The notes: a model not told the origin generated them from the letters alone. DNA of 64,000 nt from Candidatus Heimdallarchaeum endolithica (GCA_021513715.1 CP084167.1:2880001-2944000), one strand, 5' to 3'; positions 1,157 to 39,509 are shown, counted from the first letter of the stretch. Translations and numbers: made by a program.

Positions 1157-1185
1157 AAAATAAAAATGAGGAAAATAGGTCAAGT

Positions 1186-3060: not shown

Positions 3061-3116
3061 GAGACTGTTGGTGTTCTTGTAGATTATTAAAAATTAAGTT
3101 GATATGTGAATAGTAT

Positions 3117-17613: not shown

Positions 17614-19020
17614 TTAAATAAAATCTCCTGTTTCTATTTTCTGTGGGAGGTAAAAGTTTGTAATAAATTGTGGATCACGTGCGTTTAGTGCCTGAATTTC
17701 CGCTTTGTATCCTGTGTTTATTAGTATTTCAAGTTGTTCTTGCCACTTTGGTTTTCTTTTTACGAACTCTTCCTCTAACATTAGTTTAGATCGTCTTATG
17801 TCTTTTTGAGTCATTTTAATTAGTGCTTCTCTAGGTATATCAAATCCACTTTCAGGTTTTAGATCACTTGGAAGCAAACCTAACCATTTAATATTTGGAA
17901 CTGCAAGATGAGTAGATTCGAAACTAAGAGCCTTACTCCCAACACTATATACTCTCATGATTTCGAAACCGTAAGGGTCAGCATCCATAATAGCAAGAAT
18001 AGGTAGTTGTAAATCATCGTTTATTTTCTTTAAAAATTGCCTTGTTGCCATATCAGGCTGACCTTTAGCTGTAACTAAAATACTTGGGACATAATCGTAA
18101 AAATGATCTTCTGCTAACCTGTTAAAAATAGCATCTTTTTCTATAACTAAACAAAATTCAGCATCACTTTCCAAATCTTCAATATCATCTATATTTGGAG
18201 AAATAGCCTTTCCTGAACCAATAGCTCTGCAGTCAATGAGATCTCCCTTTTCCTTGAATTGCAACTTACCAACAACAATTCCTTTAGAAGAAGCACTAAC
18301 ATTTAATGATGTTCTAGTAGCTTGAATCATCGCTCCTAAATCTTCAATAAGAGAATCAGAAACTGCTTGTTTCTTAAATGCATTAACATTCATGTAAAAA
18401 ATATCTCTTTTTGTACTGTGGATATCTCGGGAGAGTATATCATGAAGAAGCCTCATTAGTATAGACATTTGTTCAATTGTACTTACAGAAGATAAACTTC
18501 TAAATTGGCGTTCTATCATCTGCCTTCCAATAAGTACTAGCTCTTGTTCTTCATCAAAGCCAATATTTCTTTTTCCTCTTGAAGGGATTTTAAAACCAGC
18601 TTCATCAGGATTGTTAAGTGCTTCATTCAAAAATAATAGCGCTGCTTCAACAATTTTGTTTTTAGCTTTTTCTGAAGACATTGTTTCTACATTAGTTACA
18701 CCATAAGGTAACTCGTAGTCTTGTAATAAAGTAAGTTCATTCCTAAGTTTTCTTATTTTATCAACTGAAACTTTTCTTTTGATTTCAATTCTCATTAATT
18801 CCTTTTTAAGAGAATAATTACTAAGGACTTTACCTTTATCTAAGGAATACCACTTCTTTCCACTTCTCAAAAAGAGTACAAAAGAACCTTTTCTAAGTTC
18901 AAATTCGTCCTGTAATATCTGGTATAATTCGTTTATTTGAATGCTATTATCAAAACTCATCTTTACTTCAGTTGAAGGCAAAATTGTTGCATTTTTTACT
19001 AAAAAATTATATCTTACCAT
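17614..19020 (-). CDS. top6A: DNA topoisomerase VI subunit A (Spo11 family) with N-terminal ubiquitin-like domain
   Basis: TKRDIFY catalytic Tyr, Toprim VIEKDA and DADPYG, KAEIQAL; extra ~83-aa N-terminal domain. Confidence 0.93.
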   Translation of the reverse strand: MVRYNFLVKNATILPSTEVKMSFDNSIQINELYQILQDEFELRKGSFVLFLRSGKKWYSLDKGKVLSNYSLKKELMRIEIKRKVSVDKIRKLRNELTLLQDYELPYGVTNVETMSSEKAKNKIVEAALLFLNEALNNPDEAGFKIPSRGKRNIGFDEEQELVLIGRQMIERQFRSLSSVSTIEQMSILMRLLHDILSRDIHSTKRDIFYMNVNAFKKQAVSDSLIEDLGAMIQATRTSLNVSASSKGIVVGKLQFKEKGDLIDCRAIGSGKAISPNIDDIEDLESDAEFCLVIEKDAIFNRLAEDHFYDYVPSILVTAKGQPDMATRQFLKKINDDLQLPILAIMDADPYGFEIMRVYSVGSKALSFESTHLAVPNIKWLGLLPSDLKPESGFDIPREALIKMTQKDIRRSKLMLEEEFVKRKPKWQEQLEILINTGYKAEIQALNARDPQFITNFYLPQKIETGDFI

Positions 19021-19030: not shown

Positions 19031-22000
19031 TTATTTTGTACTCCTTTTTTTACTTTCAATCTTTTTATCTGCAGTAATTTCATCTAAAGTTGTTTGTTTT
19101 GTCCTTTTTGCTGTTGTTTTCTTTGCTGTTGTACTTGGTTTTTTTGCTGTTGCTGTTGTTTTCTTTGTTGTTGTTTTCTTTGCTGTTGCTGTTGTTTTCT
19201 TTGTTGTTGTTTTCTTTGCTGTTGCTGTTGTTTTCTTTGTTGTTGTTTTCTTTGCTGTTGTTGTTTTCTTTGTTGTTGTTTTCTTTGCTGTTGTTGTTTT
19301 CTTTGCTGTTGTACTTGGTTTTTTCTTTGCTGTTGTACTTGGTTTTTTTGCTGTTGTTGTTTTCTTTGCTGCTGTTGTTTTCTTTGCTGTTGTACTTGGT
19401 TTTTTTGCTGTTGCTGTTGTTTTCTTTGCTGTTGTTGTTTTCTTTGTTGTTGTTTTCTTTGCTGTTGCTGTTGTTTTCTTTGCTGTTGTACTTGGTTTTT
19501 TTGCTGTTGCTGTTGTTTTCTTTGCTGTTGTACTTGGTTTTTTTGCTGTTGCTGTTGTTTTCTTTGTTGTTGTTTTCTTTGCTGTTGTTGTTTTCTTTGC
19601 TGTTGTACTTGTTTTGTTTTTTACAAAAGGAATTGATTGTTTAATTTTCTTTATATCATTATAAGTCATCTCTAGTTTTCCTTCGAGCTGTGATGTTGGA
19701 TAAACAATAAATTCTCCGATTGTATTAATTCCGAGTGATTTTAGCTTATTTCGTATTCCCTGCTTAACATCCAACTTTTCTATTGGTTCTTCTATTAGCT
19801 TTTGTAACTTTTGTACATTTTCGTTTTTGAAAGTGTCTTTTTTCTTCACCCGATTATCAGCAAAGATCAACTCTTCAAAAGAATATATTCCTATTTCCTT
19901 CAGTTTTAATATTGTCTCACTACTCATAAATGGTGTATTTTTTACTATTTGCGTTTTACCTTTTTTTGCTATTTTTAGAGATTGAGGAGTTAAAGTAGCA
20001 AAATAGTTTTTCAACTGTCTTTCTGTTATATTAGTAATTTCAGTTAGTTCATTAATTCTTGTATTAAAAACGTCCCAGAGAGAATACTTCTGTTTATGGT
20101 ATAATTTAAAAATACTGTTTGGCTTATCCTGCATTAGTGCATAGAATGAGTAAATTGGGTATGAAAGAAGTTCTTTTAATGTGGATATCTGTTTAATTGT
20201 TAACTCTGTTTGCTCTTTAATCCTTTTATCAGAAACTGATAAATGTATAATGTGGGAAAAGCCTCCGTTTTCTAAGATAGATTTTTCAGTATCCGAAAAT
20301 AGACCTAAATCTTTGATTCTGTAACTATTTAGTTCTAATTGTTCCTTCACTTTAGTCATATTAAGAGAATGAAGAAGTTCAGTAAATTCTGCATGTTGTT
20401 TTTCTGTAAATTTAATATGTAAATCATCTATATTTTGTAAAAAGAAAAGATCATAAATTTGTTCATAACCTCTTTTTGATAGTTGGGAAAGTATGTTCTT
20501 TTGACGTATAAATAATGCTAATGATGCTCTAAAACAAGAAAGAACGTCTTTTACTTTCATCGATAAATCGCTTATATTTTTTTCTTCAAACAAAGCAATT
20601 AGTTCACCTAATGAATTTATATCATTTTTATTTAGCTCGTTAATTATTTCTTTATCATTTACAAATTCTATAAGTTTAGAATTACTTTGAGCTGTTAATG
20701 AATCTAGATTATGGAATGGAATTTGAGATAAAAAGTTTTTAAGAACAGTTATGTCTGTGGATTTATTTAATAATAGTAAATCATAGACTGTTTTTATGTT
20801 ATTTTTTAGTAGAAGCTTAAATGTTTCCTTACTTTCAAAGACAAGTGGAAGAGAGTAAATTTTTTGTTCTATTCTTAAACGGAGTTTTTCTGTAATCTTC
20901 CATCTCTTTGAAGTTTTTGACTTTGAAACAAGATTAAAGATATAAGCCTCTTCTATGGAGAAAATGTGACCTTGACTTAAAACATCTAATTCAGTTTTAT
21001 CCAAAATTGTTTCTGGAATGGGGGTTAACTTCGATGCAAGAGTACGTAAAGTTTCTAATGATAGATTTCGAATCTGACGTATTAGTTTATTATCATCGAT
21101 TATCTGATTTAACTGGTATTTAGGTTTTAAAATTAAATCTCCAATTGTTAAGTTGCCATATTGTTTGTATTTCTTTTTATTCTCAAAACTTTCACCTACT
21201 AGCAAAATAATGTGCCTATTTAGAAATTGTAAGTATTCATTAAAGTGTAAAGTTATGTTCTCAGGAAAAGAGCTTGTAATATTGTCAAATTTCTTTTTAT
21301 CATATTTCTCCAAAAGAAGTAAAGATTCAAGGGTATGTTGGATTTTTTGTTCATCTTCTTCAGGGAGATTCAACTTTTCTTCGAGTTTGGTTGGTTTTGA
21401 GAAAATAAATGAGTAAATATCAAGTAGCCTTTTTGACACTTGAGAGTCTACTTTTAGAGAGTCATGATGCATATTAAAGAAAACTAATTGTTGAAAACTT
21501 AAGTTGGGAAGTTTTTCATCAAAATATCGTGAAGAGAGTTTTTGTAAAAGTTCAATTTTTGTTCTTAATGAAGGTGAAAGGTTGGAAAAAACATCGGTGT
21601 TTTCAAAAAGATCAAGATAATTTTTAATACTATTTTCTCTTAATTCAGCAATATCAAAATCTTGTAGAACAATATTTGTTTTTAGAGCAGGAGGATTGCT
21701 TATCCTAGAAATAGTAATTTTACTAAGAAAAGTGTCAACTTCACTATTCTTTGTGTCTATAATTTTTGCAAGATCTGATTTAGATAACAAAAGCATTTCT
21801 TGTATAGTACTTACTTTGGACAAAAGTTTCAACCAATTTTCAAGAGGAAGTTGTGGAAAAGAAATTAGATAAATAGACTTGTTTAATATTTTTAGAACAT
21901 TATTTCGTAATTTACTTCTCAGTCTACTGTGTTTCTTTGATAAATCATAAATCAAATCATCAACAACTGTATAATATTTCAATAATTCTTTCTTTGTTTC

Positions 22001-25000
22001 ACTATCAAATAGCATAATATTAGAAAGTTGAACTCTTTTATCTCTCAATTTTCTAATTGTGTTAAGATTCAAAGTTGAGAGAACGCGATTAACTTTCTCA
22101 AGTTGTTTTTCTGTTAAGAATGAAGAATATGAAATTGGCTTAATTAGTAAATCTTTCAGTGTTTCGATTTTATGTTCATTTAGTTTTTCTATTTCTTTTT
22201 CTGTAAAATCTGTTACTATAGAGATGGAACTGTTGAGAAGATTTAAAATTTCTAACCCTTTTTTAGTAAGAGTCTGTTTGTTCATGTACAATACAGAAAT
22301 AAGATCGATTATATTTGAGATATCTGGAATTTCAATGTTTTTACTGAATAAGTCTTTTGAATTAATAGTACCAAGAAAATCTCCTGTTTTTAATGTAAGA
22401 GATAATGTTTTCTTTTTATCTTTAATCAGATTACTAATTATTGTGCTATAACCACCTAAGTTGATTAGTTTATCGTTTTTGATAAGATCCTTGACAGTGA
22501 AAAGATTGTTGTCAAAATATTTTGTTTCAATTTCTTCAAATTCTAAGGAATTAATAGCACCTAAAAATAGGATTGAAGTATCTAATATTTGTTTTATTTT
22601 TGTTTTTATTTTATTTATCTTTTTTATATCGTAAAGCCAGCTGTATATTGAATTCTCTTCTAAATCTGAAAAACTATAGAACCCATAAGAAGACAATATG
22701 TCCTTTTCTTTTTCACTAAGAAATGGCAAATCTACTAAATGATTGGGTTTATCATGTTCAATTGCATTTTTTATGTTTTCTATCTTAATTGATGAACGAA
22801 GTTTTAATATTTGATCAAGTTTAATCCTTGATTTGTGTGCAAGTGTTTTATATGGGATAAGAAGTAAATCTGCAATAGTATATATTCCACCTTTTTTAAG
22901 ATTAGTTTCTAATTTCTCTTCTAATCCTAAGTATCGAATATTAGCTAGTAAATAGGGACTAATTTCTGCAAATATGTTTTTATCTTTTAGGTTAATATCT
23001 CCAAGTAATTCTTGATAAGACAAGTATCCTAGTTTCATTATTTTTTCTTCATATGAAGTTAAAGGAGGGCTAAATTGTTCAAGTTGTAGATTCTTTAATG
23101 TTGATAGACTTGATAAAATTTCATCAACCATTTCATCTTTCAGATTTTGAATAGAGGAAATAACATCAATAATATGAATTATATTTTTGCTATAGCAATA
23201 TTCTATTGTAGAGAGTGTTAGTATAGGTAGATTATTTATATTTCTACATAATTTCATTCTAATGTTTCTAATTTCTTCAAGATATGAATCAGGCAAATTT
23301 GAGAAAAATTCTTCAGGGAAGTAATATAAGTATTCAATAGAGAAAACTCCTAAATTATATAATTTTTGAACTAATGATTTATTTAACTTCAAATTAGCTA
23401 TATCAAGAGTAGAGAATTGAAGAGAAGATAGGTTTCTAATGAAGAGAGAATTGTTCTCTTTTATCATCTTATTTAATTCTGGAAGATAGCTTTCCCACAA
23501 ATAAATTGGAATATGAAGATAGTCATAATAGGTGTTTTTATTTTTCAATGAAGATTCAACATTTATTATTGAAATGCCAAATATTCGTTCAATTGTTTTT
23601 ATTGGTGTAAAGAGAACAGGAAAATTGACTATCAGTTTTTCTTTTTCTTCTTTGCTTATTTCTATTTGATTAACGTCTTGATAAAATAGCTGAATCAAAG
23701 AGTAAATTTCATTTTCATTAAGATGTTTAATCGTAGAAATTTCTGGTTTTTCAATTGTTTTTAGACTAGTACCTTCCTTTGCCTCACGCTTTTTGATGAG
23801 TGGGAGTTTACCCTCTCCTGTGATCTCTTCTTCAGTTAAAGATGGTAAAAGGTTTAAGTCAATACCATAGATTTTAAGTTCTGAAATAATATCTTGTTTG
23901 TTTATTTGTGATTTAATAGTTTTTATTTCTTTAAACTCTATTCCAAACAATTGGCTTAAGGAAGCTGAAGGAATGGTTAAGAATTCAAGAATTGTGTTAA
24001 TTTTGTTGTTCAAAAGAATAGAATTTTGCTGTAATGAGAGAGAATTTAAGAAGGAAGTTGGAGTTGAACCAAACAAAGAGAGAGTCTTTTTTATTGTAGC
24101 TAGATTTTTATCTTCTAAGCTGTAATCTTGTAAACAAAGAAGTTGATCTAAATAATCAATTTTAATCTTTTTTAAAGCTAGCTTCTGTTCCTTCGTCAAA
24201 AACTTTACATCATGTAGTTTGATGGCCCATTTAGGTATTTGAAAATCAGATAAGGAACTTACTAAATATTCTGCCATTTCTGTATTAATCTTTTCTGGGG
24301 GAAGAAGTAATAAATCAAGAATGAGTTTTTTATTTTCTTTTATCAATTTTCTTAAGAACTCGAGTTGTTCTATTTGAGAAAATTTGTCCAACCAAATAAT
24401 TGGATATTTAACCTTGTTTGTGAGGGATTCAGAGTTATTAAAGAGGATTTGAGAACCAATAACAAATGGTTGAGGAAGTAAATCGAGTAAATTAATAACG
24501 TCGAGAGAGGTCTTAATATTTAGTTTATCATTCTTGTTTGATAGAATATCCAAATGGTCTTTAGGGATCAGATTAACCAATTTTTCTTTGGAAAACTCTT
24601 TTACAAAACGGATAATCTCTGTTCTAGCATTTGAAGGAATTGATCTTTTTTCTTCAGAACTGAGTGTAAGAAGTTCAATGATGTTTTTTACTTCGTTTTT
24701 CCACAAATCAAGCTTGACATCTAAAGATATTTCAGGTATAGAAAAAATGTTTAGGCTTAAACCATAGATAAATTCTTCAAGTTTAGCGATGCTACTTGCT
24801 TTTTCTATTTTTTCACTTTCAGAGAATATAAGAAGATATTCTGGTACCAACCCAAAGATATCTTCAAATGATGCCTTTGAAAGGTTAAACTTAAAGTTTG
24901 TGAGTGCACTCATTAACTCTTTATCTTCCTCAAGAATTGGAATGCCTGAACTAAGACTTATATTTCCTTTTCTTTTCTCCTTTAGTTCTTCAGGGATAAA

Positions 25001-28000
25001 ATTAAGGATACTCTTAAGATCTTTTTCTCTAACTGTGAAAAGATCAATAACTCGTAGAATGCGATTCTTTGCAAGAGTACGTTTAATAAATCGCGAAAGG
25101 TTTGAAATTCTGAAAATAGAGGAGTTACAAAGAGATAGAAAAACGTCGATATTTTCTTCAAATTCATCTGAAAATGATTTTATTTGATAGCTTAAACTAT
25201 AAAGATCTTGAACTGTTTCTTTATTTAGTTTTTGTAAAGTCATAAGATTTCTCTTTGATAGTAAGGTTAGAGATTCAAGTTTTACTCCTTTTTCTGCTAC
25301 TTCTTTCTGGATTTTTTTAACTGAAACATTTTCCTTTATTTTTATAATTTCTGCCTCTGGTATGTCTAAGATTAATGATATTGTGGTGATATCTTCTGTT
25401 AAGAAAGTAAGTATATCTCCAACTCCAGAATATACAAGCTTGAGCATTTGCTCTAGTTCTAAATCTAAGAAGAATACTGATGAGAGATACAATTTTGCTT
25501 CTTTGAATACATTCATATTCACTAAATAGGGATATGATTTTCTGATTTCAGACATTCTAGAAATGAAGTCTTGGATTGAATAAATCCCAAGTTCATGTAA
25601 CTTTTCAACATATTCATCTGTAATAGAGGGACAATTTTCTAAAGGAATAGCAAAACTAAGTCTTTTCTCTTTTAGTTCGTCTAATGAAAGCAAGTCAAAT
25701 ATGTGGAATTCATTATAAATTGGATTGTTTAGGATTTGAGACAATTGTCCTTTTTCAAAAAGAGACAAATCAATTACAGAGTGAATGTCGTGTAGTTCTA
25801 ACTTCTTTATTTCTTCAAAAGACAAGAAACTGAGGAAAGTTATTGAACCAGATAATAGCTCTTTGAATTCCTTATATTTTTCTTTTTTTAGAATACTGGA
25901 AGCTCCCATTCTTACTCCTGCATAGTATAAAGTTTCTATATCTGATATCCCTATTTCTTGTAACTTAGAAATTTCTGATTCAGTGATAAGAGATGAGGGC
26001 ATAATGGGGTGAGATCTAGTTCTATGTAATTCGACGATTTCACCGTAGGAAAGATTTTCCTTTATTTCATTAATTCTTTTTTGTGTTTCATTGGATATTT
26101 CAGAAAGTTTCTTGGTAGGGGTAGAATAAAAGTCTATTAATGTTGTAATTGAAGATCGACTGAGAGGGAGAGCGAGATTAGCATCAAGGTTTAGAGACGA
26201 AATAGGGATAGATAAATCGCCTATAAGTTTATCTAAACTATTTTCCTCTCTTAATTTGTTTTTTATTTCTAAAAGAGGAGAGCTCTCTTCAAATTCAAGT
26301 TCAAACAAGATACCTAAAGTTACAGTAGAGAAATCGTTCCTTGTTTCTTCATTCAAAAAGTTAAGAAAAGGGGTTATTCCAAGAGGAAGTTCAAAGACTG
26401 AACGAATAAGTGTAATATTACATTTTTCAAAAGCTAGTTGTCTTTCAAACTCACTGAGAGTTTTAATCAAATCCGTACTGGATATCACATCAAGTAGTGA
26501 TGACTCTTCTATGTCATCTAAAATAGAAGAAAAGAAGTCTTTATTGTATGCTGTTGCAGAAATAAAATCAAAGTAATGATAAGCTCTCATGTCAATTAAT
26601 TTGGATGAATAATCTGAAACTGTCCTAAACAATGTTCTGTCTGTTAAATCGTTATCTAATATGAAAATTAAATGGTAGAGATGTGAAATTTTGTTTTGAT
26701 TGAAAATAGTTAAAGAATAATCTGATATTTCCTGAAAAATTCGTAAAGGAAGTGATAATATCTTCTTTAGTGTGAAAACTTTTCGCCAGATAGATGATTT
26801 TCTATCAATGAAAACTTCATCAGGGCAGTAGAAAAGCTCTTGAATAGATTGAAATCCTTCATAACTATAAATTGTTTCTCTACTTAATGTTCTTTGTTCA
26901 TTTTTATCAAAAAGTTTAGTTTCATATGCATAGATTGCCCTTGTTTCATATTCTTCTCTTATTCTTTGAGAAGTTAAAATGTCTATTATTTCTTTAATTT
27001 CTTTTGTTGAAATGTTTAAGATGCTACTGAGTTTAACAGATGAAGTAGAAACAAAATCAACAATTGTTAATATATCAGCTTTTCTAAGTTCTTCTGTTTG
27101 TGAAAAAGAAAGTTTTGGTAAGAAATATACCGGTAAACTGAAAAAGTAGAATATTTCTCCAAGATCTAGACTCCTTTTAATATTGTCAAATCGTTCATCA
27201 GGAACTCCTGTTCTCTCCATTAAGACTTTGGATGATGTAAGTAGAAAACCTAGTAAGGTGTTTATTTTATTTTTCTTTAGAAGAGTAATTATATCTGGAT
27301 CTAACATATCTGACAAATGCTTAAAGCGTAGATTTAACACGTTTTTTAAGTTCTGTATTATTTCCCAAGGAATTGTGTTAATTGCCCATTTCTCTTGTTG
27401 AGTAGAAAAGTATAGGTCTTCAATGGTAAAAATATTGTTTGTTTCTAGAGTTTCTACTATAGAGGGTCTAAAGATGTCGAGTTCAGAAATGTCAGTACCT
27501 GTTTCACTAATTCGAATGTTTTTCTTGTATTTTTTAGCTTCTTCTAGATCAATTTTCAAGATTGAAGCAATTTTCTCATCACTAACAAGGAAAAAGTCTA
27601 TAATTCGTCTAATCCCAGTTTTTCTTAAAGCATTCAGCTGTTCATGAGATAAACTTGTTATTTCAACTTCGTCTACTTCTTTTTCTTGTTTCGTTTCCTC
27701 GTTTAATATTTTCTTCTTTACTGTTTTTTCCCAAGTGACAAGAGTCAAGGGAGAACGCAATAGCTTTTTGAATTTCTCAATTACTCCCCATTTTATAATA
27801 GTTGCACCAAAAGTATAAGGGTGTGTCAAGTAAAAGAGTTTGTCAATAGAATTGTATCCTATAACAAGTAAGGACAGTATTTCTTCTGGTGAAAAACGTT
27901 CTGAATTTTCGAAATCAAAAGAAATTGTAGATACATATTTTCCACTAGCTACTTTTTCATAAAATGGTTGTCCATCTCTATTTAAATCAAAATTGTTTAT

Positions 28001-31000
28001 TAGTTCATCAAAACTCTTCTTTGAAAAATTAAGGAGTGTTCTTAATTCATCAAAACTGTAATTAAAAAATTGATGTAAGGAGTATATTTTTTTTGATGCT
28101 AAAACCTCATAATCTTTAAGTTTCAAACCTTTTATACGAGTGATTGGGAGTTGCAAAAACTGATAGAAGTCAATTATTTCTTGAGATAGCAAAACTTTTT
28201 CAGAAAAATCATCTGAAACTTTAAGATTTTTACTATTTATGTTATCGTAGAATTCTAGTAAGACTTTCCTGTCTTTATTTTTAGAAATTTCTGTTTCAAT
28301 GAATGCAGGTGTTAGTTGAAGAAAATCTCTTATTGTATTTACATCCTTCGTTTTAAGCTTAAGAATTGCATCATTCAAAGATTTTGCTTTAGCTTTTGTT
28401 GGAGCTAATTTTGTTAAAAAGAGTATATCTTCATTCATGAATTCTTGAAAGTTATTCATTTTTGATAGAAACTCAGAGATAGGTGGGAGTTCTTCTTCAA
28501 TATAAAAGTAAAACAACTCTTGTATTGTTGTTTGTTGTTCATTGAATTGTTTGACCAATCTCGGGAAGTGCTTTTTTATAATTTTTAAATTTCCTTTGTA
28601 CAATTGTTTGTTTTTCTTAACCTTGTCAGCAGATATGCTTTGTTTTAAACGAATGATCTCTTCCTCGTTAAGGTTTAGTATTAGAGAGAGTTCTTTATTA
28701 CTCCATATAAGAAACCTCCCTATACAATTTACTCCTACCTCATTTAATACGTTAATTTTCTCATTTAATTCAGGAAAAGCAAAAATTAAAGGTGTTCGTA
28801 ATAATAAATAATCTGAAATGTATTGATTCTTAGTTTGTTCATCTTCAAATCCGAAATCTTCTGGGTTAGAGTATATTAAATCCTCTACTGTATATATTTC
28901 ATACTTGTTTGCTTTGCTTTTCAAAGATAGAAAATTGGGAATGGGTGTACCTATTTTTTTCTTTATTCTTGCAATCTCACTTTTTAATAACCCCATTTCG
29001 CGTAATCTTTTTGAAGGAGTAATCAAGAATGATGTAGAAGTAAATATTTTATTTTCCAATAATCTTTCTTCTGCCTTTTCATTAATTACTTTGAGGTGAG
29101 ATAAATCAAGATCTCTATTTGTTTCATTGAGATGAGTAAGTATGCGAAGTTTCGATTCTTCCAATAAACTATCCACAAAAATAGCTAATTCCTTTTTCAT
29201 TAAAGTTCTTAACTTTGCATTTGCATATTGGGCTAGAGTATCTATGTTCACAGACTTAAAAATGTCTAATATGCTCTTTTTTGTGCTATCATCTATAGTA
29301 GATATTAGTTTTAGTTTGCTTAGAGGAATTGATTTTTCAGTGTTAGCCAGAATAGTAAAGAATCTTGTGTAAATTGAACGCTCTAATTCTTTGATCTCTA
29401 GAAGGTCCTTAGTTGGTTTTTCAAGAAAATTTTTTATTGTCTCTATCTTTCGTCTATGGAAAGCATTTTTAGTATAACCGTCTATCCAGTCAGGTTTCAT
29501 TTTTGTTATATTAGTTTTTAGAAATTCAGGAAACTTCTGTGAAATATGCGAAAATACTTTCTTAATATAATCAATCAAGATTTCTGTTAAATCATTTTCA
29601 TATTTATAAGAAAAGGGCTCATTAAACTTGAAAATAAAATCTTCTAGTCCTCTAAACTTATTTGAAAAGTTGGGATAGGTTGTTTTTACATAGTTGAAGT
29701 CAGGATATAGAAATTCTTCTTTTAATTCTGAATAAGCAGACATGGTATCCAAATTGAACTTAAATTCTTGAATAAAACTTGATAAATCGACTGTTTCTTC
29801 TGAGTTTTGAGATTTCGTAATTTCACTAATTAACTTAAATTTGTTTCCCTCTATTAAACGCTCTACTAATCCTTCAACAAAACGTAATTGTGTAGCTTCT
29901 GTTGCTAAATAGTGATAACTATTTTGAATCCATCTTTGATATAAAGCTTCATTGAAACTACTACTTGTTCCTCTTGCAAACCTTTTATCAATTGTTTTGT
30001 TTGTTAATGCTTTCAGAGGAAGTTCAGGGCTCAACTTGGACCTGTCTAATTCATAAATTGTCCTTTGCTTTATTCTTGAAACTTCTTTTTTTGAAAGATT
30101 TAGAATTGTGGACAATTCTGAAATTGGTATAGAGAGAAACTTTCCTATTGTTAAAATATTATTTTTAGCACAATTGTTTTTATATTTGTCTGGACACCAC
30201 ACATTAAGTTCAAAAATCGGTGTTCCTAAAGGAACAAAATTCCTAATTTTCTTTTTTGCTCCATGGGCAAGAGCTGCTGCAACCTTATATTTCTCTTTAT
30301 TTATATTTGTATAAACTATTTTTTCATTCTCCAATATTCTAGCGAGATTATCGATTACAACAGGGGCTGATCTTACAAAACGAGATAATCTTGCATGTTC
30401 TCTTTTTCTTCTTTTTGCTCTACTTAGGAAAGTTTTTAGTCTTCTACCAAGTTGTTGCAAAGCTAATCTTATCTCTTCTTCAATCTCAGGAACAGTTGAA
30501 ATATACTCTTTACTAGTTTCAGGAAAAGGAATTTTTGTACTTACTATTGACACAGCAATAGCTAGCGGGTCTGATTGTCTTGTAAGTCCATATTCGCTCC
30601 AATTTAAAGAAGAAACTACTTTTGTAATAACATCATTTCCCGCACCAAAAATTAGAGGAATTCTATTTGCATATCTGTAAATTATTTTATTATCAACTGA
30701 TGTGCTTCCTTTTTGTTGGGCATATTTAGATACTCCACCTCCATAACCTATTGCAGCTTCTACAATAAAAGGGTGGCCAGAGTAAGCTTTTGGAGGACGA
30801 GAAATTGCTTCAACAAATTCTGGTTCAAGTTCTTTTTCTAAACCTTTTCTTAGTCTTGCTGCTCCTAAAGGAGAAAGAGCATCACCTTGTGGAGCGTCGA
30901 ATCTAAAGATCCTATCCCTCTTTCTTTTTATTTCTTTAGCTTCTTGGTATGCTTTAATGAATCCTTCATGAACTATTCTTCTAATTTCTTTTGAAGTAAG

Positions 31001-31945
31001 TTCGCTTGGTTTTTTGTTAGGATCAATTTCCAAAATTTGAAAGAATTCCTCAGCAACTTCCTTTCTCACTCCCATGAAGTCTTTTGATAAAAATTCGATT
31101 AGATCATTTGCAGAGGTTGCAGCTATTTTTGCTTTGAATTGAGTAATATCACAACCAAATGGGTGTAGTTGAATTACTTTTGGAGGATCTGGCATGTCAT
31201 CTACTACTTTTTGAAAAACTAGTTTTTCACTTGTTCCTTCTTCATCTCCAGGTAGTACTACAGTGAAACTAGCATAAGGGGTAATTATTGCTAATTGCTT
31301 AAAGTATTCTTTAATGCTGTTTTTTGCTAGATTCCAAGCTCCAGTGAAAGTTATACTTATCTCAGTTCCACTAGTATGTAAATATCCTTGGTCATCAGGA
31401 TAATATTCATGCTGCTCCATGATGACTGGTTCATTTTTTTCTAAATTAATCATTAAATGAACTTCATTTGTCATTTCTTCCATGAAGTATCTGCTTTTTA
31501 TTCTTGCAGGAAGATCAACTGAAGACATAGAGTGAATTAAACACATCTTGGCTCCTAAACCAAATCTTCCTCTAGTTTGAATCACTCCATATTTTGTCCC
31601 TGTTAATACTCGACCAAAAAGGTTCGGAATCTCGTGACCTGGAACACCTACACCATTATCTCTGCATGTTAACTGAAGAAAATCAAGATGTTTTTCTAAT
31701 TGTTTATATCTAGTAATATCTAATAATTCATTAATTTCAGAACTAGTTAGTTTTCTTAATTCAACATATATTTCTGGATTTACACCTAGTTTTTCAGCTG
31801 CATCTAAACCATTTTCAACTAACTCTCTAACTGATGTGAAAACAGCTCGCATTGAATTACCAAAACCTGCAATAGCCTTATTTTCATTAAAAAAAGCAGC
31901 TGCACTCATTTTTCGTGTTTTATTTTCTTCAGTCACAAAATTCAC
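19031..31945 (-). CDS. top6B: Giant DNA topoisomerase VI subunit B (GHKL + transducer + long HhH-like repeat array + basic tail), 4304 aa
   Basis: RELVENGLDA, DNGVG, TGTKY..QTRGRFGLG, RYANRIPL, PFPETSKE in aa 1-~545; uninterrupted frame; 10 bp upstream of top6A. Confidence 0.9.
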   Translation of the reverse strand: MNFVTEENKTRKMSAAAFFNENKAIAGFGNSMRAVFTSVRELVENGLDAAEKLGVNPEIYVELRKLTSSEINELLDITRYKQLEKHLDFLQLTCRDNGVGVPGHEIPNLFGRVLTGTKYGVIQTRGRFGLGAKMCLIHSMSSVDLPARIKSRYFMEEMTNEVHLMINLEKNEPVIMEQHEYYPDDQGYLHTSGTEISITFTGAWNLAKNSIKEYFKQLAIITPYASFTVVLPGDEEGTSEKLVFQKVVDDMPDPPKVIQLHPFGCDITQFKAKIAATSANDLIEFLSKDFMGVRKEVAEEFFQILEIDPNKKPSELTSKEIRRIVHEGFIKAYQEAKEIKRKRDRIFRFDAPQGDALSPLGAARLRKGLEKELEPEFVEAISRPPKAYSGHPFIVEAAIGYGGGVSKYAQQKGSTSVDNKIIYRYANRIPLIFGAGNDVITKVVSSLNWSEYGLTRQSDPLAIAVSIVSTKIPFPETSKEYISTVPEIEEEIRLALQQLGRRLKTFLSRAKRRKREHARLSRFVRSAPVVIDNLARILENEKIVYTNINKEKYKVAAALAHGAKKKIRNFVPLGTPIFELNVWCPDKYKNNCAKNNILTIGKFLSIPISELSTILNLSKKEVSRIKQRTIYELDRSKLSPELPLKALTNKTIDKRFARGTSSSFNEALYQRWIQNSYHYLATEATQLRFVEGLVERLIEGNKFKLISEITKSQNSEETVDLSSFIQEFKFNLDTMSAYSELKEEFLYPDFNYVKTTYPNFSNKFRGLEDFIFKFNEPFSYKYENDLTEILIDYIKKVFSHISQKFPEFLKTNITKMKPDWIDGYTKNAFHRRKIETIKNFLEKPTKDLLEIKELERSIYTRFFTILANTEKSIPLSKLKLISTIDDSTKKSILDIFKSVNIDTLAQYANAKLRTLMKKELAIFVDSLLEESKLRILTHLNETNRDLDLSHLKVINEKAEERLLENKIFTSTSFLITPSKRLREMGLLKSEIARIKKKIGTPIPNFLSLKSKANKYEIYTVEDLIYSNPEDFGFEDEQTKNQYISDYLLLRTPLIFAFPELNEKINVLNEVGVNCIGRFLIWSNKELSLILNLNEEEIIRLKQSISADKVKKNKQLYKGNLKIIKKHFPRLVKQFNEQQTTIQELFYFYIEEELPPISEFLSKMNNFQEFMNEDILFLTKLAPTKAKAKSLNDAILKLKTKDVNTIRDFLQLTPAFIETEISKNKDRKVLLEFYDNINSKNLKVSDDFSEKVLLSQEIIDFYQFLQLPITRIKGLKLKDYEVLASKKIYSLHQFFNYSFDELRTLLNFSKKSFDELINNFDLNRDGQPFYEKVASGKYVSTISFDFENSERFSPEEILSLLVIGYNSIDKLFYLTHPYTFGATIIKWGVIEKFKKLLRSPLTLVTWEKTVKKKILNEETKQEKEVDEVEITSLSHEQLNALRKTGIRRIIDFFLVSDEKIASILKIDLEEAKKYKKNIRISETGTDISELDIFRPSIVETLETNNIFTIEDLYFSTQQEKWAINTIPWEIIQNLKNVLNLRFKHLSDMLDPDIITLLKKNKINTLLGFLLTSSKVLMERTGVPDERFDNIKRSLDLGEIFYFFSLPVYFLPKLSFSQTEELRKADILTIVDFVSTSSVKLSSILNISTKEIKEIIDILTSQRIREEYETRAIYAYETKLFDKNEQRTLSRETIYSYEGFQSIQELFYCPDEVFIDRKSSIWRKVFTLKKILSLPLRIFQEISDYSLTIFNQNKISHLYHLIFILDNDLTDRTLFRTVSDYSSKLIDMRAYHYFDFISATAYNKDFFSSILDDIEESSLLDVISSTDLIKTLSEFERQLAFEKCNITLIRSVFELPLGITPFLNFLNEETRNDFSTVTLGILFELEFEESSPLLEIKNKLREENSLDKLIGDLSIPISSLNLDANLALPLSRSSITTLIDFYSTPTKKLSEISNETQKRINEIKENLSYGEIVELHRTRSHPIMPSSLITESEISKLQEIGISDIETLYYAGVRMGASSILKKEKYKEFKELLSGSITFLSFLSFEEIKKLELHDIHSVIDLSLFEKGQLSQILNNPIYNEFHIFDLLSLDELKEKRLSFAIPLENCPSITDEYVEKLHELGIYSIQDFISRMSEIRKSYPYLVNMNVFKEAKLYLSSVFFLDLELEQMLKLVYSGVGDILTFLTEDITTISLILDIPEAEIIKIKENVSVKKIQKEVAEKGVKLESLTLLSKRNLMTLQKLNKETVQDLYSLSYQIKSFSDEFEENIDVFLSLCNSSIFRISNLSRFIKRTLAKNRILRVIDLFTVREKDLKSILNFIPEELKEKRKGNISLSSGIPILEEDKELMSALTNFKFNLSKASFEDIFGLVPEYLLIFSESEKIEKASSIAKLEEFIYGLSLNIFSIPEISLDVKLDLWKNEVKNIIELLTLSSEEKRSIPSNARTEIIRFVKEFSKEKLVNLIPKDHLDILSNKNDKLNIKTSLDVINLLDLLPQPFVIGSQILFNNSESLTNKVKYPIIWLDKFSQIEQLEFLRKLIKENKKLILDLLLLPPEKINTEMAEYLVSSLSDFQIPKWAIKLHDVKFLTKEQKLALKKIKIDYLDQLLCLQDYSLEDKNLATIKKTLSLFGSTPTSFLNSLSLQQNSILLNNKINTILEFLTIPSASLSQLFGIEFKEIKTIKSQINKQDIISELKIYGIDLNLLPSLTEEEITGEGKLPLIKKREAKEGTSLKTIEKPEISTIKHLNENEIYSLIQLFYQDVNQIEISKEEKEKLIVNFPVLFTPIKTIERIFGISIINVESSLKNKNTYYDYLHIPIYLWESYLPELNKMIKENNSLFIRNLSSLQFSTLDIANLKLNKSLVQKLYNLGVFSIEYLYYFPEEFFSNLPDSYLEEIRNIRMKLCRNINNLPILTLSTIEYCYSKNIIHIIDVISSIQNLKDEMVDEILSSLSTLKNLQLEQFSPPLTSYEEKIMKLGYLSYQELLGDINLKDKNIFAEISPYLLANIRYLGLEEKLETNLKKGGIYTIADLLLIPYKTLAHKSRIKLDQILKLRSSIKIENIKNAIEHDKPNHLVDLPFLSEKEKDILSSYGFYSFSDLEENSIYSWLYDIKKINKIKTKIKQILDTSILFLGAINSLEFEEIETKYFDNNLFTVKDLIKNDKLINLGGYSTIISNLIKDKKKTLSLTLKTGDFLGTINSKDLFSKNIEIPDISNIIDLISVLYMNKQTLTKKGLEILNLLNSSISIVTDFTEKEIEKLNEHKIETLKDLLIKPISYSSFLTEKQLEKVNRVLSTLNLNTIRKLRDKRVQLSNIMLFDSETKKELLKYYTVVDDLIYDLSKKHSRLRSKLRNNVLKILNKSIYLISFPQLPLENWLKLLSKVSTIQEMLLLSKSDLAKIIDTKNSEVDTFLSKITISRISNPPALKTNIVLQDFDIAELRENSIKNYLDLFENTDVFSNLSPSLRTKIELLQKLSSRYFDEKLPNLSFQQLVFFNMHHDSLKVDSQVSKRLLDIYSFIFSKPTKLEEKLNLPEEDEQKIQHTLESLLLLEKYDKKKFDNITSSFPENITLHFNEYLQFLNRHIILLVGESFENKKKYKQYGNLTIGDLILKPKYQLNQIIDDNKLIRQIRNLSLETLRTLASKLTPIPETILDKTELDVLSQGHIFSIEEAYIFNLVSKSKTSKRWKITEKLRLRIEQKIYSLPLVFESKETFKLLLKNNIKTVYDLLLLNKSTDITVLKNFLSQIPFHNLDSLTAQSNSKLIEFVNDKEIINELNKNDINSLGELIALFEEKNISDLSMKVKDVLSCFRASLALFIRQKNILSQLSKRGYEQIYDLFFLQNIDDLHIKFTEKQHAEFTELLHSLNMTKVKEQLELNSYRIKDLGLFSDTEKSILENGGFSHIIHLSVSDKRIKEQTELTIKQISTLKELLSYPIYSFYALMQDKPNSIFKLYHKQKYSLWDVFNTRINELTEITNITERQLKNYFATLTPQSLKIAKKGKTQIVKNTPFMSSETILKLKEIGIYSFEELIFADNRVKKKDTFKNENVQKLQKLIEEPIEKLDVKQGIRNKLKSLGINTIGEFIVYPTSQLEGKLEMTYNDIKKIKQSIPFVKNKTSTTAKKTTTAKKTTTKKTTATAKKPSTTAKKTTATAKKPSTTAKKTTATAKKTTTKKTTTAKKTTATAKKPSTTAKKTTAAKKTTTAKKPSTTAKKKPSTTAKKTTTAKKTTTKKTTTAKKTTTKKTTATAKKTTTKKTTATAKKTTTKKTTATAKKPSTTAKKTTAKRTKQTTLDEITADKKIESKKRSTK
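19105..19612 (-). repeat. Coding tandem repeat giving a (T/A)2-4-KK / KKPSTTAKK low-complexity tail
   Basis: Shuffled units ttctttgctgttgttgt, gtacttggttttttt and gctgttgct over ~0.5 kb. Confidence 0.95.
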
Positions 31946-32083: not shown

Positions 32084-35014
32084 TTAATTTTCCTTACGGA
32101 ACAATTGTTGCTTAACTGGTTCTGCATTAATTGTTAGAGAAGATACAATTATACCTAGTGTTAGAATGAATAAGGCAGCAAAAGCTCCTCCGGTTCTATA
32201 AGAATCTGCTCTTCCTATTATTGAGAGGAAATCATTCTCGATATGTTTGGCAAGGTTTTCTGTAGAATAGAGCATATCTTCAAGCCAGAATAAGTTTGCC
32301 ATATCTGCAGTAAGTTTAGGATAAGTTTGATGCCATGTTCTATACTTATACTGAACATCTTCAGTGTTTTCTACTGCATCCTCATCTAAAAATGGATAAT
32401 ATTCTACGTATTGACCTGCATAGGTATTATATTGTACTCTATCTCTTCGTTCGAGAATTGTACCAGTTGTTGGGTCAGTGAAAATTTGTTGGAAGTGGAA
32501 TTCATCACGTATAGAACCAGGAAATGTGTGAGTAATATAAATATCATCATTCTTCCAATCTGTACCATAAATTTCGTTCCATCTTCCTACATGAACAAAA
32601 CTTTCATTTAGATAATCTGCATACTCTTGCCAATATAAGTCATATTGATCTACTTGTAGATAAGGTTGTTGTGTGTCTGCATAGTAAATGTATGCATCTC
32701 TTCCATACATGATTGTTTTATCTCTAGCAGAATCAAAGATAAAGGGACGGAAGAAGTATTCAACCCATCTTTGTGTAAATCCTCTTACTGTATTTGGAGG
32801 TAAAGCATTTAATGCATAAGTCTCACTGAATGGATCAAATTCCACTGTTTTCATTGGCCAATTATTTAATTGGACGAAAGAAGCTTTATCCCAAACTTCA
32901 ACAAATGTTCTTAATTCATCTCTATGTAGCACATCACTAAATGAACCTGAAGAGTAAGTTACATGTATTAAACCTTTAGAACCATCAGCTAAGTAAATGT
33001 TATTGCCAGAAGCGTAAACATCAAATGCTTCTCCATCGCTGTCGTAAGTTGCTAAACTGGATAAGGAATTGACGTTAGAAGCATCTACTACAATTAACCC
33101 ATTTTCTCCTGCAGTTAGGTATAATAAATCATTGTCTTCGTATATATTAAAGAAACCATCAGAAGTACCAAAGTCATATGTTTCAATTTGTGTTAAAGTG
33201 TTTCCACTAATTGAATAGACTACAAGTCCTAAAGTAGCATCAAGAACATATAATGTTGAACCATCCAACAGTAATTGTGTTGCTCCAGGAAGAGAGACGT
33301 TTACTAATGAATCTAATGTTGAAGCATCAAAAACTTCTATTCCTCGACCTTGTTCAACAGCATAAACTTTTGTTCCATCAGTATTAATTGCAATAACAGG
33401 CGAATCAGTTTCTTTAAGGGTATTCAAGGAAATATCTCCACCATTTGTTGTTAGTTTAGCTAATCCATATTGTCCCATAGCAACGAATAATGAGGATTTT
33501 GTAGGATTATATTCAAGATCTAAAGCGTTTACATTTCCTCCGTTAGTCCAAACATTAATTTGTTCTATCTCTGAAAGATCAGCTAAATTTAATGAAACTA
33601 ATCCTTTTTCACCAGCTGCTACATATCCAAAATCGCCATATAAACTAGTTTCAAAAGCAATATCCTTGAAAGAGTAACCTTGTAATCTGTATCCTCCAAT
33701 TCCTAAAAATAAGGGGCTGGAAGTATTTACTATTCTGAAACCTCTGTTTCCTTCGATCACATAAGCGAAATCTCCATTCATCTCAACCTTGTAACTTTGT
33801 GATTTTTCAAAGGTGGGGATATTGCCAATTGCAATTATTTCATCTACTCTTGTAATATTTTCTCTGCCTGTTTTTACAGCGTATAATAAGTCTGTAGAAG
33901 GATCAAAGGTTTCGAATGATTGATTAACCAAGAAAGGATATTTTCTTCCTCCAAGGAGAGGATCTTCAATCCCTGTAACCCACTCTGTTGCTGTTCTTTC
34001 GCAAATATAAGATATTTTTCTGTCGTATAACCAAGTTAATGCAGGAGTACCTGTAAGATATCTAATGTATGAAGCGAAAGATTGAGCTTGTTTTAGTTCT
34101 TCTGGTGTATCAATATCATAAATTTCTGCTAACTTTTGTGTAACGTTAACAGTGAGAATTGAGGAGTCATAGCTTAAACCTTGAACTAAATCAAGGAAGT
34201 ATTTCATAGACCCAGCTTCTCCAGTGAATAGAGAATAGTCATGACCATCTGCAGTTAATGCATTAAAGAGAATTTTGTAGGCTGTCTCACTATCAAAATT
34301 AAGATCTGTGTGATCAGGACGTGAATTAATCCACATGTGAGGGCTATACTTAATGCTGTAAATTAGGTCATTATCTTGTGCATAATCTTTATTTAGTACA
34401 ATTTTAGCAATTTCGCTGTTATTGTATCCTAATTCTTCTAATTCACTTCGAATCATAAAACTTGCAACATAAGCTTGTAAACCATACTCTGAACCATTAC
34501 CGAAATTCTTTACATAATATGGCCAGAGGTAGTTATAATTAACAATTTTCTCATTACCTGTTAATGTTGAAAGCGTTTTGTTTAAAGTGTATTGCTTCCG
34601 TTCAGTGTAAACAACATAATCATTTTCTTCACTATAATCAACTATAAATTTCTTCATTTCTAAGTCAAATACTAGTTTTCCTGGAATTCCTATGTAAGTA
34701 ACTGGCGTATTTTTGTACAGGTATGCATTTCTGTCACTTATGTTGTAAAATTCTATATAGGTATGAGCGTAATAATTACTATCATCAGAGTATTTACCAA
34801 CATACATCCAATCAGAGTAATTGTCGCTTCCTCCTTCGTAAGGATCAAGGTCGTCTTCTGTAATCATACCATAGTTACTTAGTTTCTCTTCTATTTGATT
34901 ATTGATTCTGATAGTTTGAATTGGTAACATTACGCCAACTGCGATAGCTGATCCAGAAGTTAAAATTAAAATAAATATTCCTAACATTATACGGAATTTT
35001 TTCTGCATAGTCAT
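32084..35014 (-). CDS. CD36/scavenger-receptor-class-B-like membrane protein with inserted LVIVD-type beta-propeller
   Basis: N- and C-terminal TM helices; CD36-like blocks GSDNYSDW, EFYNIS, RTATEWVTGIEDPLL, VKTGRENIT, DPTTGTILERRDRVQYN, FWLED; internal AYVxxGxxGLxxxD repeats. Confidence 0.72.
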   Translation of the reverse strand: MTMQKKFRIMLGIFILILTSGSAIAVGVMLPIQTIRINNQIEEKLSNYGMITEDDLDPYEGGSDNYSDWMYVGKYSDDSNYYAHTYIEFYNISDRNAYLYKNTPVTYIGIPGKLVFDLEMKKFIVDYSEENDYVVYTERKQYTLNKTLSTLTGNEKIVNYNYLWPYYVKNFGNGSEYGLQAYVASFMIRSELEELGYNNSEIAKIVLNKDYAQDNDLIYSIKYSPHMWINSRPDHTDLNFDSETAYKILFNALTADGHDYSLFTGEAGSMKYFLDLVQGLSYDSSILTVNVTQKLAEIYDIDTPEELKQAQSFASYIRYLTGTPALTWLYDRKISYICERTATEWVTGIEDPLLGGRKYPFLVNQSFETFDPSTDLLYAVKTGRENITRVDEIIAIGNIPTFEKSQSYKVEMNGDFAYVIEGNRGFRIVNTSSPLFLGIGGYRLQGYSFKDIAFETSLYGDFGYVAAGEKGLVSLNLADLSEIEQINVWTNGGNVNALDLEYNPTKSSLFVAMGQYGLAKLTTNGGDISLNTLKETDSPVIAINTDGTKVYAVEQGRGIEVFDASTLDSLVNVSLPGATQLLLDGSTLYVLDATLGLVVYSISGNTLTQIETYDFGTSDGFFNIYEDNDLLYLTAGENGLIVVDASNVNSLSSLATYDSDGEAFDVYASGNNIYLADGSKGLIHVTYSSGSFSDVLHRDELRTFVEVWDKASFVQLNNWPMKTVEFDPFSETYALNALPPNTVRGFTQRWVEYFFRPFIFDSARDKTIMYGRDAYIYYADTQQPYLQVDQYDLYWQEYADYLNESFVHVGRWNEIYGTDWKNDDIYITHTFPGSIRDEFHFQQIFTDPTTGTILERRDRVQYNTYAGQYVEYYPFLDEDAVENTEDVQYKYRTWHQTYPKLTADMANLFWLEDMLYSTENLAKHIENDFLSIIGRADSYRTGGAFAALFILTLGIIVSSLTINAEPVKQQLFRKEN

Positions 35015-38198: not shown

Positions 38199-39509
38199 AT
38201 GGAAGAAAGTTCAAAAGTTCCTGTTAGTGGGATAAAGGCAAGTTTAGTATATCCTGAATCTAAAATAAAACCAGTTTTTAATTTTGAAAATATGATAGTT
38301 GAACACTATAAACGATTTCCACGAACTGCAGCATTGATTGAAAATCCAAAATATGCAAAAGCCCTAATGAACCCTCTGAAATCTTTCTATCTTGTCCCTA
38401 TTGCTATTTTCAAGGTCAAATTTAATACTATTCTCTCAATGAAATTTTGGAATTACATGTCTTTGTGGTTATACATCCTTATTGCTTCTATTCCAAATTC
38501 TATCTCTATGTATTTAACATTCAAAAGCAATAAAATTTTAGGTGATATTACTTTTTCAGTTATCATACCTATATTAGTTTCCTCTCTAGTTGCCCTTTGG
38601 TACCTTAAATTTACACATGATGGTTTCTTTGGACTAATTATAGAGAAGAAAGTTGAGTGGTTGGAAAAACCTGTAAAAGAATACTATGATAAATATTATG
38701 ATAAAAAATTTAGTTTAAACGTTGTTTTAGTCACTTTGAGCGTCTTGACCTCATTAGGTGTTGGAATTCCTGTATTAATTTATGCTTCTAGCCAAGGTTT
38801 ACAATCTGCAATTATATTTGGAATTATTGGAATGATTTGCAATCTGCTAGTCTTTTATGTTTTCTATTTGTCTTTACAATATACTATATTAAACACTAAA
38901 ATTTATTCAAAGGTATTAAACACTATAAAAAATAGAATAAATCTCTATCTCAACGAGTATGGAACTTTGCTGAACAGTGAAAATTATGAGATCATTTGGG
39001 CTTTAGGAGACACTCCTGGAAGATCAATACGACAACTTGAGAATATACCTATAGCTGGAGTAATCTCTGCATTAATAGTAACAATTGCCATGTTAATAGG
39101 GACTATTAACCAAGCAGTTCTTGGACTAGTAAAAGGAGTTATGCCAACAGTGAATATAATTAATTCACAAATGAGTCTCAATGCAATAATTGCAACAATC
39201 TCTCTAGTTATTGCAATTGTGATGGTGTTAATCGTTATTCTTCCATTGTACATCTTTAGTAGTAAAATGAAGAAATTTAAAGTTAAAGCGCTGATAGAAC
39301 TGGACAATTACATTTTTGCGAATGTGATGGAATTTGAACAACGTTATTCTGAGCTTGCAAAACAAGAAACAGTAACTATATTTGCTCTCAGAGAGTATAT
39401 CTCTGGTATGAGAACTATTCCAATTTCTGCGGCGAAGATTATTAAAAGTTTAACAGCTGTTGCAGTATGGTTCGTAAATGTAAGAAAAATAATAAAAGCA
39501 TTTGGTTGA
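38199..39509 (+). CDS. Multi-pass membrane protein of unknown function
   Basis: About 6 hydrophobic segments; 10 bp upstream of the tubulin/FtsZ-like gene. Confidence 0.75.
   Translation: MEESSKVPVSGIKASLVYPESKIKPVFNFENMIVEHYKRFPRTAALIENPKYAKALMNPLKSFYLVPIAIFKVKFNTILSMKFWNYMSLWLYILIASIPNSISMYLTFKSNKILGDITFSVIIPILVSSLVALWYLKFTHDGFFGLIIEKKVEWLEKPVKEYYDKYYDKKFSLNVVLVTLSVLTSLGVGIPVLIYASSQGLQSAIIFGIIGMICNLLVFYVFYLSLQYTILNTKIYSKVLNTIKNRINLYLNEYGTLLNSENYEIIWALGDTPGRSIRQLENIPIAGVISALIVTIAMLIGTINQAVLGLVKGVMPTVNIINSQMSLNAIIATISLVIAIVMVLIVILPLYIFSSKMKKFKVKALIELDNYIFANVMEFEQRYSELAKQETVTIFALREYISGMRTIPISAAKIIKSLTAVAVWFVNVRKIIKAFG

Follow-up and report, generated by a model that had tools for sequence, protein, structure and literature searches.

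Introduction

Archaeal B subunits of topoisomerase VI (Top6B), such as 2ZBK_B of S. shibatae, with 530 amino acids (aa), and 2Q2E_B of M. mazei, with 621 aa, combine a GHKL ATPase domain, an H2TH domain, and a transducer, and their genes form an operon with top6A. In the parts of PMC9348778 that treat these subunits, they are described as ending in a short helix or in an Ig-like C-terminal domain of ~100 aa. Here we analyze a topoisomerase VI locus of Candidatus Heimdallarchaeum endolithica that shares these domains and the top6B-top6A operon but whose B subunit carries ~3,760 extra residues, with an array of helix-hairpin-helix (HhH)-fold domains and a basic tail bearing a motif that resembles a PCNA-interacting protein (PIP) box, and whose A subunit has an added ubiquitin-like domain. 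The locus lies in a 64,000-nucleotide stretch of the genome (GCA_021513715.1 CP084167.1:2880001-2944000), referred to here as the window, in which positions are counted unless another contig is named. We conclude that this is a surprising new form of topoisomerase VI, conserved across the Heimdallarchaeia, the archaea near which eukaryotes branch.

In topoisomerase V of Methanopyrus kandleri, too, numerous HhH-type domains are arranged in tandem behind a topoisomerase domain (PMC9489208). That enzyme, however, is of type IC; its catalytic domain is unrelated, and its 12 (HhH)2 units wrap DNA, whereas the enzyme described here has the GHKL and transducer domains of type IIB, and its repeat units are of the RAD51 N-terminal domain (NTD) and RNA polymerase alpha C-terminal domain (alpha-CTD) kind, about twice as numerous, and mostly without the glycine-hydrophobic-glycine (GhG) hairpin. 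By its sequence, the protein belongs to the Top6B family and not to that of topoisomerase V. The fold of the single repeat is shared with the NTD of RAD51 and RadA, the alpha-CTD, and the AR1 and AR2 domains of NusA, where it occurs once or twice per protein. In eukaryotes, according to the relevant sections of PMC9665070, BIN4-RHL1 or REC114 is attached, as modeled or known, at the C terminus of the B subunit (Top6B or TOP6BL); BIN4 and RHL1 are DNA binding, but these partners are separate proteins of unrelated fold, and those sections describe no such array in eukaryotic Top6B. A functional analogy for the tail is offered by eukaryotic topoisomerase II, which owes its DNA-stimulated condensation to the C-terminal region (PMC9674351), although that enzyme is of type IIA and nonhomologous, with an unstructured C-terminal region and no folded 3,500-aa arm.

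A preliminary description of the window, generated by a model from the sequence alone, regarded the system as the best candidate there for an undescribed one. This agrees with the portions we searched of the literature on topoisomerase VI, gyrase, and replisome evolution that includes Asgard genomes: the passages on Asgard Top6B in PMC9348778, PMC12680538, PMC9665070, and PMC11302465 mention neither a giant subunit nor an HhH array nor a ubiquitin-like Top6A. Relevant passages of PMC12680538 report that eukaryotic Top6A/Spo11 descended from Asgard Top6A. In NCBI records the giant proteins are named DNA topoisomerase VI subunit B, and the partner Top6A is mostly labeled hypothetical.

Results

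The Top6B open reading frame runs uninterrupted from position 31945 to 19031 (-), and its 4,304 codons make the subunit ~8 times the normal size. Translation may in fact start at the GTG at 31936, giving a protein of 4,301 aa, because the Shine-Dalgarno-like sequence AGGAGTGA overlaps the first GTG. Residues 7 to 550 score above the NCBIfam cutoffs for Top6B (PRK04184, 467.8 versus 274; TIGR01052, 399 versus 380.7), and a search of the closed genome, a single contig of 3,326,783 bases, recovered the window copy as its sole Top6B. The preliminary description had reported the 4,304-aa protein and had named a stop codon or misassembly behind the transducer as one outcome that would refute it. Neither was found: the 3.32-Mb genome was assembled from Nanopore reads with Illumina polishing (PMC8813620), and ~20 independent genomes of the same family carry open frames of 4,140 to 4,305 aa, so the giant frame is confirmed as real and is not a misassembly. 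Three parts of the locus escaped that description and are treated below, namely, the basic tail (~194 aa), the PIP-like motif, and the ubiquitin-like domain of Top6A.

The catalytic core is intact, as had been claimed. The GHKL ATPase domain (aa ~1 to 252; positions 31190 to 31945, -) aligns to 2ZBK_B of S. shibatae with an E value of 1e-87 and retains the N, G1, G2, and G3 boxes; residues E41, N45, D96, G98, G100, R125, G126, G129, G131, K133, and G193 are invariant among 59 array-bearing Top6B proteins. The alignment to 2ZBK_B continues through the H2TH domain (aa ~253 to 350; 30896 to 31189, -; approximate boundaries) into the transducer (aa 352 to 545; 30311 to 30892, -; Pfam PF09239, E value of 4.6e-57), which includes the helices that bind Top6A. 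There, the anchoring residue N427, W449 and Y452 of the WxxY motif, and the switch lysine K471 are invariant in 60 orthologs; the motif, WKxY in its usual form, reads WSEY in the window copy. In all, 15 catalytic and motif residues are unchanged throughout the 59 to 60 array-bearing orthologs, and the ratio of nonsynonymous to synonymous substitutions (dN/dS) of the core is 0.016 in comparison with the neighboring genome of the same genus, Candidatus Heimdallarchaeum aukensis PM71.

The partner gene top6A (17614 to 19020, -; 468 aa) begins 10 bp downstream of top6B; its product matches Pfam TP6A_N and TOP6A-Spo11_Toprim, with the catalytic tyrosine Y209 and the Toprim residues E294, D346, and D348 intact. 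The sequences thus far described fit an ordinary topoisomerase VI with intact catalytic residues, predicted to form an A2B2 complex with a calculated mass of ~1.1 MDa. An N-terminal domain of Top6A (aa ~1 to 85; 18766 to 19020, -) is ubiquitin-like, as judged from orthologs and a family profile: the Borrarchaeum orthologs exceed the Pfam ubiquitin (PF00240) cutoff of 25.4 with scores of 31.0 and 32.7 and also match Rad60-SLD (PF11976), and the family profile A1 retrieves ubiquitins from the PDB, while the window copy by itself falls under the ubiquitin cutoff. Because no C-terminal di-glycine for conjugation follows the last strand in alignment A1, the domain appears to be an integral part of Top6A and not a modifier. 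None of the best 120 Top6A homologs listed is, by name, a eukaryotic protein.

Behind the transducer, aa ~577 to 4108 (19622 to 30217, -) form an array of at least 49 HhH-fold domains, as identified by profile scoring and AlphaFold2 models. A strict form of the repeat motif occurs 8 times (shuffled mean, 0.1; shuffled maximum, 2), an iterative hidden Markov model finds 39 copies, and in profile-profile scoring with the family alignment 49 positions exceed the null maximum, all of them between aa 597 and 4073. Two further positions lie just below the threshold and several gaps are repeat sized, so 50 to 58 domains are likely, and the two dozen copies first seen by eye were real but too few. Pairwise identity among the repeats has a median of 13% and a maximum of 37%, which bears out the earlier impression of an old, diverged array. 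Across long stretches the spacing alternates between 67 and 54 aa, which suggests units of two domains.

The fold proposed in the preliminary description, that of the RadA-Rad51 NTD and the alpha-CTD, was recovered. The Pfam profile RAD51D_N matches Top6B with 74.5 bits (cutoff, 27.3), and RNA_pol_A_CTD reaches 20.8 bits, under its cutoff of 23.8. AlphaFold2 models of aa 540 to 1120 (581 aa; mean predicted local distance difference test [pLDDT] score, 88.7; predicted template modeling [pTM] score, 0.80) and aa 1270 to 1740 (pLDDT, 84.2; pTM, 0.66) show repeats of four to five helices. The best structural match is the NTD of RAD51D (Z score of 7.3; root mean square deviation [RMSD] of 1.2 over 53 residues), and the top matches to NTDs of RAD51 paralogs, including RAD51C, have Z scores of 6 to 7.3 and RMSDs of 1.2 to 2.9; since all Z scores are below 8, we read them jointly with the sequence match. 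Further single-domain matches are to the alpha-CTD, NusA AR, and SAM domains. The multi-repeat assembly as a whole had no counterpart among solved or Atlas structures (best Atlas template modeling score, 0.29), and neither topoisomerase V nor any multi-repeat protein was listed by the fold searches, which does not make the fold new. Because the pTM scores are high, neighboring domains probably pack in a defined way and not as loose beads. Searching the genome of H. endolithica with the array recovered no second array-like protein, the next best matches having one or two domains; among 1.84 billion representative sequences, only 35 scored E values below 1e-30, and the examination covered the stronger matches.

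The fold invites comparison with topoisomerase V, whose 12 (HhH)2 domains wrap DNA (PMC9489208), and with it a reading in which the ~50 domains would wrap or track DNA lengthwise and provide processivity and a bridging surface. The alternating 67- and 54-aa spacing is reminiscent of (HhH)2 units, one repeat column is 66% lysine or arginine, and the short arrays of the Gerdarchaeales are basic (net charge of +2.1 per repeat), and keep hairpins of the form KGLGxKT, and the Gerdarchaeales protein also matches the classic HHH_5 profile (E value of 8e-26). The long arrays differ. In a canonical DNA-binding HhH hairpin, GhG is followed by a basic helix, a combination that is nearly absent from the long arrays: GhG is found in 2 of 943 long-array repeats, versus 15 of 43 repeats in the Gerdarchaeales. 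Mean charge per repeat in the long-array families ranges from +0.3 to -1.2; the window array has a net charge of +1 over 3,550 aa, and everything C-terminal of the core sums to -38 to -51 in the Hodarchaeales and to -16 to -96 in families f2 to f4, basic tails included. Many of the polar residues most conserved between families are acidic or aromatic, as in the TxEDLY motif and at several tryptophans, and the DNA-binding NLGRKS stretch of the alpha-CTD aligns with an acidic, tryptophan-containing stretch of the repeat. In the Gerdarchaeales, the lineage that branches first, the short array thus resembles a DNA binder; the long arrays, given the near loss of GhG and their neutral to acidic charge, seem to have turned structural or protein binding. 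A lengthwise clamp is in our judgment rather unlikely, and of the long DNA-binding scaffold initially proposed, the fold stands while DNA gripping in the manner of topoisomerase V is weakly supported.

A further alternative is that the acidic domains act like NusA AR1/AR2 or SAM domains, serving as a scaffold for protein partners (the replisome, RNA polymerase, histones, or the proteasome/Cdc48 via the ubiquitin-like domain of Top6A) or restraining the enzyme through a folded-back arm, such that decatenation would proceed without undoing the supercoils introduced by gyrase. NusA AR and SAM domains are indeed among the fold matches, and the most acidic arrays occur in the histone-rich Hodarchaeales. 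Further, the ubiquitin-like Top6A accompanies every long array that has a Top6A on its contig and none of the short Gerdarchaeales arrays. The link to gyrase has a precedent in that C-terminal extensions of Top6B have been proposed, in the relevant passages of PMC9348778, to be adaptations to gyrase, and gyrA adjoins top6B in the Hodarchaeales; however, gyrase was not found in the array-bearing Gerdarchaeales and Borrarchaeum and is present in the array-less Lokiarchaeales, on which grounds an adaptation of the array to gyrase is not supported. We consider the partner scaffold as a whole unlikely.

The array is followed by an H1-like, low-complexity basic tail of 194 aa (aa 4111 to 4304; 19034 to 19615, -), recognized by its composition (31% lysine, 40% threonine, 15% alanine) and a net charge of +59. 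It is the strongest basic stretch rich in lysine, alanine, threonine, serine, and proline in the genome. Over the C-terminal 100 aa, net charge has a median of +25 to +31 in the Heimdallarchaeaceae (f1), f3, and f4, versus +6 in the Hodarchaeales. Within the tail, QTTLDEIT (aa 4284 to 4291; 19073 to 19096, -) is a degenerate PIP-box-like motif, and its family form Q-x-T-L-x-[DE]-h, where h is hydrophobic, is present in 17 of 18 complete Heimdallarchaeaceae tails (shuffling P ≤ 0.003). The Hodarchaeales end in L-D-x-Y-M, which lacks the glutamine, and f3 and f4 carry neither motif. PCNA is encoded in the genome of H. endolithica, and three of its proteins that by sequence appearance are RFC-L, FEN1, and Hel308 have C termini of the form Q-x-[SR]-L-D-x-F-F; Top6B shares with these proteins the Q-x-x-h start near the C terminus but lacks their F-F.

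A survey of Top6B lengths across Asgard genomes, which had been suggested as a check, found array-bearing copies of ~1,110 to 4,300 aa in several families, mostly colinear and in length classes of ~1,100, 2,300, 3,500, and 4,200 aa. The longest (~4,150 to 4,300 aa) are in the Heimdallarchaeaceae and f2, followed by f3, which includes RS678 and which we take to be the Kariarchaeaceae, and f4 (~3,470 to 3,590 aa), the Hodarchaeales (~2,310 to 2,340 aa), Candidatus Borrarchaeum (~2,285 aa), and the JABLTI01 family (f6), presumably the Gerdarchaeales (~1,110 to 1,150 aa), which has a second Top6B of the normal kind. No repeats were detected in the remaining Asgard Top6B proteins that we fetched. 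The alignments with the window protein cover aa 4 to 2331 for the Hodarchaeales, 14 to 1668 for Borrarchaeum, and 4 to 1973 for an f3 protein, with identity highest near aa 1300 to 1700 and rising again at the last repeats. In a phylogeny of 61 cores, a quick IQ-TREE search with support from the SH-like approximate likelihood ratio test only, the 24 array-bearing sequences form one clade (support, 100), in which the Gerdarchaeales are sister to the other array bearers and Borrarchaeum is nested; array-less Sifarchaeum is the nearest outside lineage. The simplest reading of this pattern is a single origin of the array followed by stepwise growth, possibly with transfer of an array-bearing Top6B to Borrarchaeum.

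The variation in length, fourfold among families, together with the lower conservation of the distal array (17 to 37% identity within the family beyond aa 2400), could also be expected if the extension were tolerated baggage gained by near-neutral accretion, were an assembly artifact, or were processed off a normal Top6B, and in metagenome-assembled genome (MAG) G040 the core and array lie in overlapping frames. The G040 split, however, looks like a single frameshift, the long-read closed genome and the independent full-length frames speak for one protein, and the array is colinear across orders and under purifying selection, with a dN/dS in comparison with H. aukensis of 0.045 to 0.17 in all segments. 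We regard accretion or artifact as highly improbable.

To place the arrays in the context of other chromosome organizers, we surveyed Smc and histones in genomes of which most are incomplete. Condensin-type Smc is encoded in 21 of 22 Hodarchaeales and 12 of 12 Gerdarchaeales genomes, and in the order to which H. endolithica belongs it was found in none of 8 high-quality genomes and in 4 of all 47. Three of these four matches are partial, and the fourth, in G023, shares 72% identity with Hodarchaeales Smc and looks like bin contamination. Canonical Smc queries gave no full-length tblastn match in the closed H. endolithica genome, which does encode a divergent 992-aa SMC-family protein (C1:1457751-1460726, -) followed by two small genes, possibly a kleisin and a kite; the Pfam ScpA profile was too insensitive for this survey. 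An apparent lack of Smc in the Hodarchaeales, suggested by a Pfam SMC_hinge search, proved wrong, as full-length Smc with a diverged hinge is present. HMf-type histones (E < 1e-10) occur in 36 of 36 genomes of other orders, with 2 to 13 matches per genome in the Hodarchaeales, versus 2 of 47 in the order of H. endolithica. A complete absence of histones from H. endolithica is ruled out by one FtF-like histone (C1:1770339-1770596, -), and the genome also encodes two Alba proteins; the species is included in the histone alignment of 10.1101/2025.05.08.652872. Gyrase and a type IA topoisomerase are present in its genome, in which topoisomerase IB was not found. The longest arrays and strongly basic tails occur in the very order for which the surveys mostly failed to find condensin-type Smc and nucleosomal histones; this coincidence is a lead and not proof.

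Several further observations concern these proteins and their surroundings. Bin G023, which departs from the other members of its family in having an HMf-type histone and Smc copies like those of the Hodarchaeales, is probably a chimeric MAG. The gyrA gene lies within ~1 to 2 kb of top6B in the Hodarchaeales (G059:C23, G068:C1, G049:C4, and G047:C256) and ~430 kb away in H. endolithica, where GyrA (C1:2465029-2467680) is a 1,270-aa frame whose Pfam match is split by ~430 aa, probably by an intein; similar splits occur at two sites in other family members. In Candidatus Borrarchaeum yapensis (L023:5883-12731), a helical-looking, coiled-coil-like region of ~540 aa (aa ~1690 to 2230), not present in other lineages, stands between the array and the short lysine/threonine-rich tail. 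The long Top6B proteins of the Lokiarchaeia (1,000 to 1,350 aa; L082:3717-7181, L089:4227-7973, L024:1094-5140, and L092:4401-7286; the f29 copy has 961 aa) were considered as the same architecture and rejected, as no repeats were detected in them and their extra length lies before and within the core, with an N-terminal ~150 to 350 aa and an insertion before the transducer, neither of which has a Pfam match. This route of enlargement, in a set that appears to include Promethearchaeum, is unrelated to the array. In the f28 genome G272 (L096:4357-6600), a Top6A of 747 aa, about twice the normal size, lies beside a 671-aa Top6B.

Directly upstream of top6B, the window encodes a 976-aa LVIVD-repeat protein (32084 to 35014, -), for which no link to topoisomerase VI was found. 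Elsewhere in the window, a divergent tubulin/FtsZ-family GTPase (39520 to 40659, +; PF00091, 33.6 bits, barely above the cutoff) starts 10 bp after a gene (38199 to 39509) whose 436-aa product belongs to no clear family, and a caspase-family peptidase (Peptidase_C14; 60563 to 61687, -) has an N-terminal Ig-like domain.

Discussion

The best explanation of these results, which we hold tentatively, is that the locus encodes a working topoisomerase VI whose B subunits would each carry a rigid tether arm with a tip that binds DNA and PCNA. Its functional steps are what we infer from the observed catalytic integrity, fold, conservation, and charge. The arm would have originated from an HhH array that was short, basic, and DNA binding, of the kind still seen in the Gerdarchaeales, and would then have lengthened into a mostly structural, protein-binding tether. 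At its tip, the H1-like tail would bind DNA irrespective of sequence, and docking on PCNA would fall to the PIP-like motif. In this way the decatenase would be kept at DNA that is replicated and interlinked, and a single enzyme could bridge DNA segments that lie far apart. In the order of H. endolithica, the longer arm and tail would probably also compact or organize the nucleoid, by analogy to the C-terminal region of eukaryotic topoisomerase II.

A stronger form of this idea, that topoisomerase VI, as a megadalton enzyme whose two long folded arms end in H1-like tips, is itself a main chromosome organizer in the Heimdallarchaeum/Kariarchaeaceae order, which apparently has lost condensin-type Smc and nucleosomal histones, seems doubtful to us. 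If it were true, topoisomerase VI would bridge and condense DNA and resolve the very links that it holds, and it would be a parallel, in a prokaryote, to eukaryotic topoisomerase II in its role as a scaffold. The Smc and histone surveys provide circumstantial backing for a role in chromosome architecture.

Several points weigh against the tether explanation and its extension to chromosome architecture. The association with loss of Smc and histones represents a single phylogenetic event. The Hodarchaeales have a 2,300-aa array without a basic tail, yet keep Smc and many histones, and Borrarchaeum, with an array and a short lysine/threonine tail, keeps both; the array itself is therefore no replacement for Smc or histones. 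Genome G031, with a Top6B of at least 4,241 aa, retains an HMf-type histone, and H. endolithica still encodes its FtF-type histone, two Alba proteins, and the divergent SMC-family protein. The PIP-like motif has I-T in place of the aromatic pair at positions 7 and 8 and is absent from the f3 and f4 tails. Finally, RAD51-type NTDs can bind DNA without GhG, such that weak, additive DNA binding along the arm may occur as well.

At the level of the family, these findings depict a housekeeping enzyme that appears to have been enlarged stepwise from ~540 to 4,300 residues under purifying selection, with a partner that gained a ubiquitin-like domain. Such an enzyme, which reaches its greatest size in the order for which Smc and nucleosomal histones escaped detection, offers a testable handle on how the chromosomes of these archaea are organized and separated.

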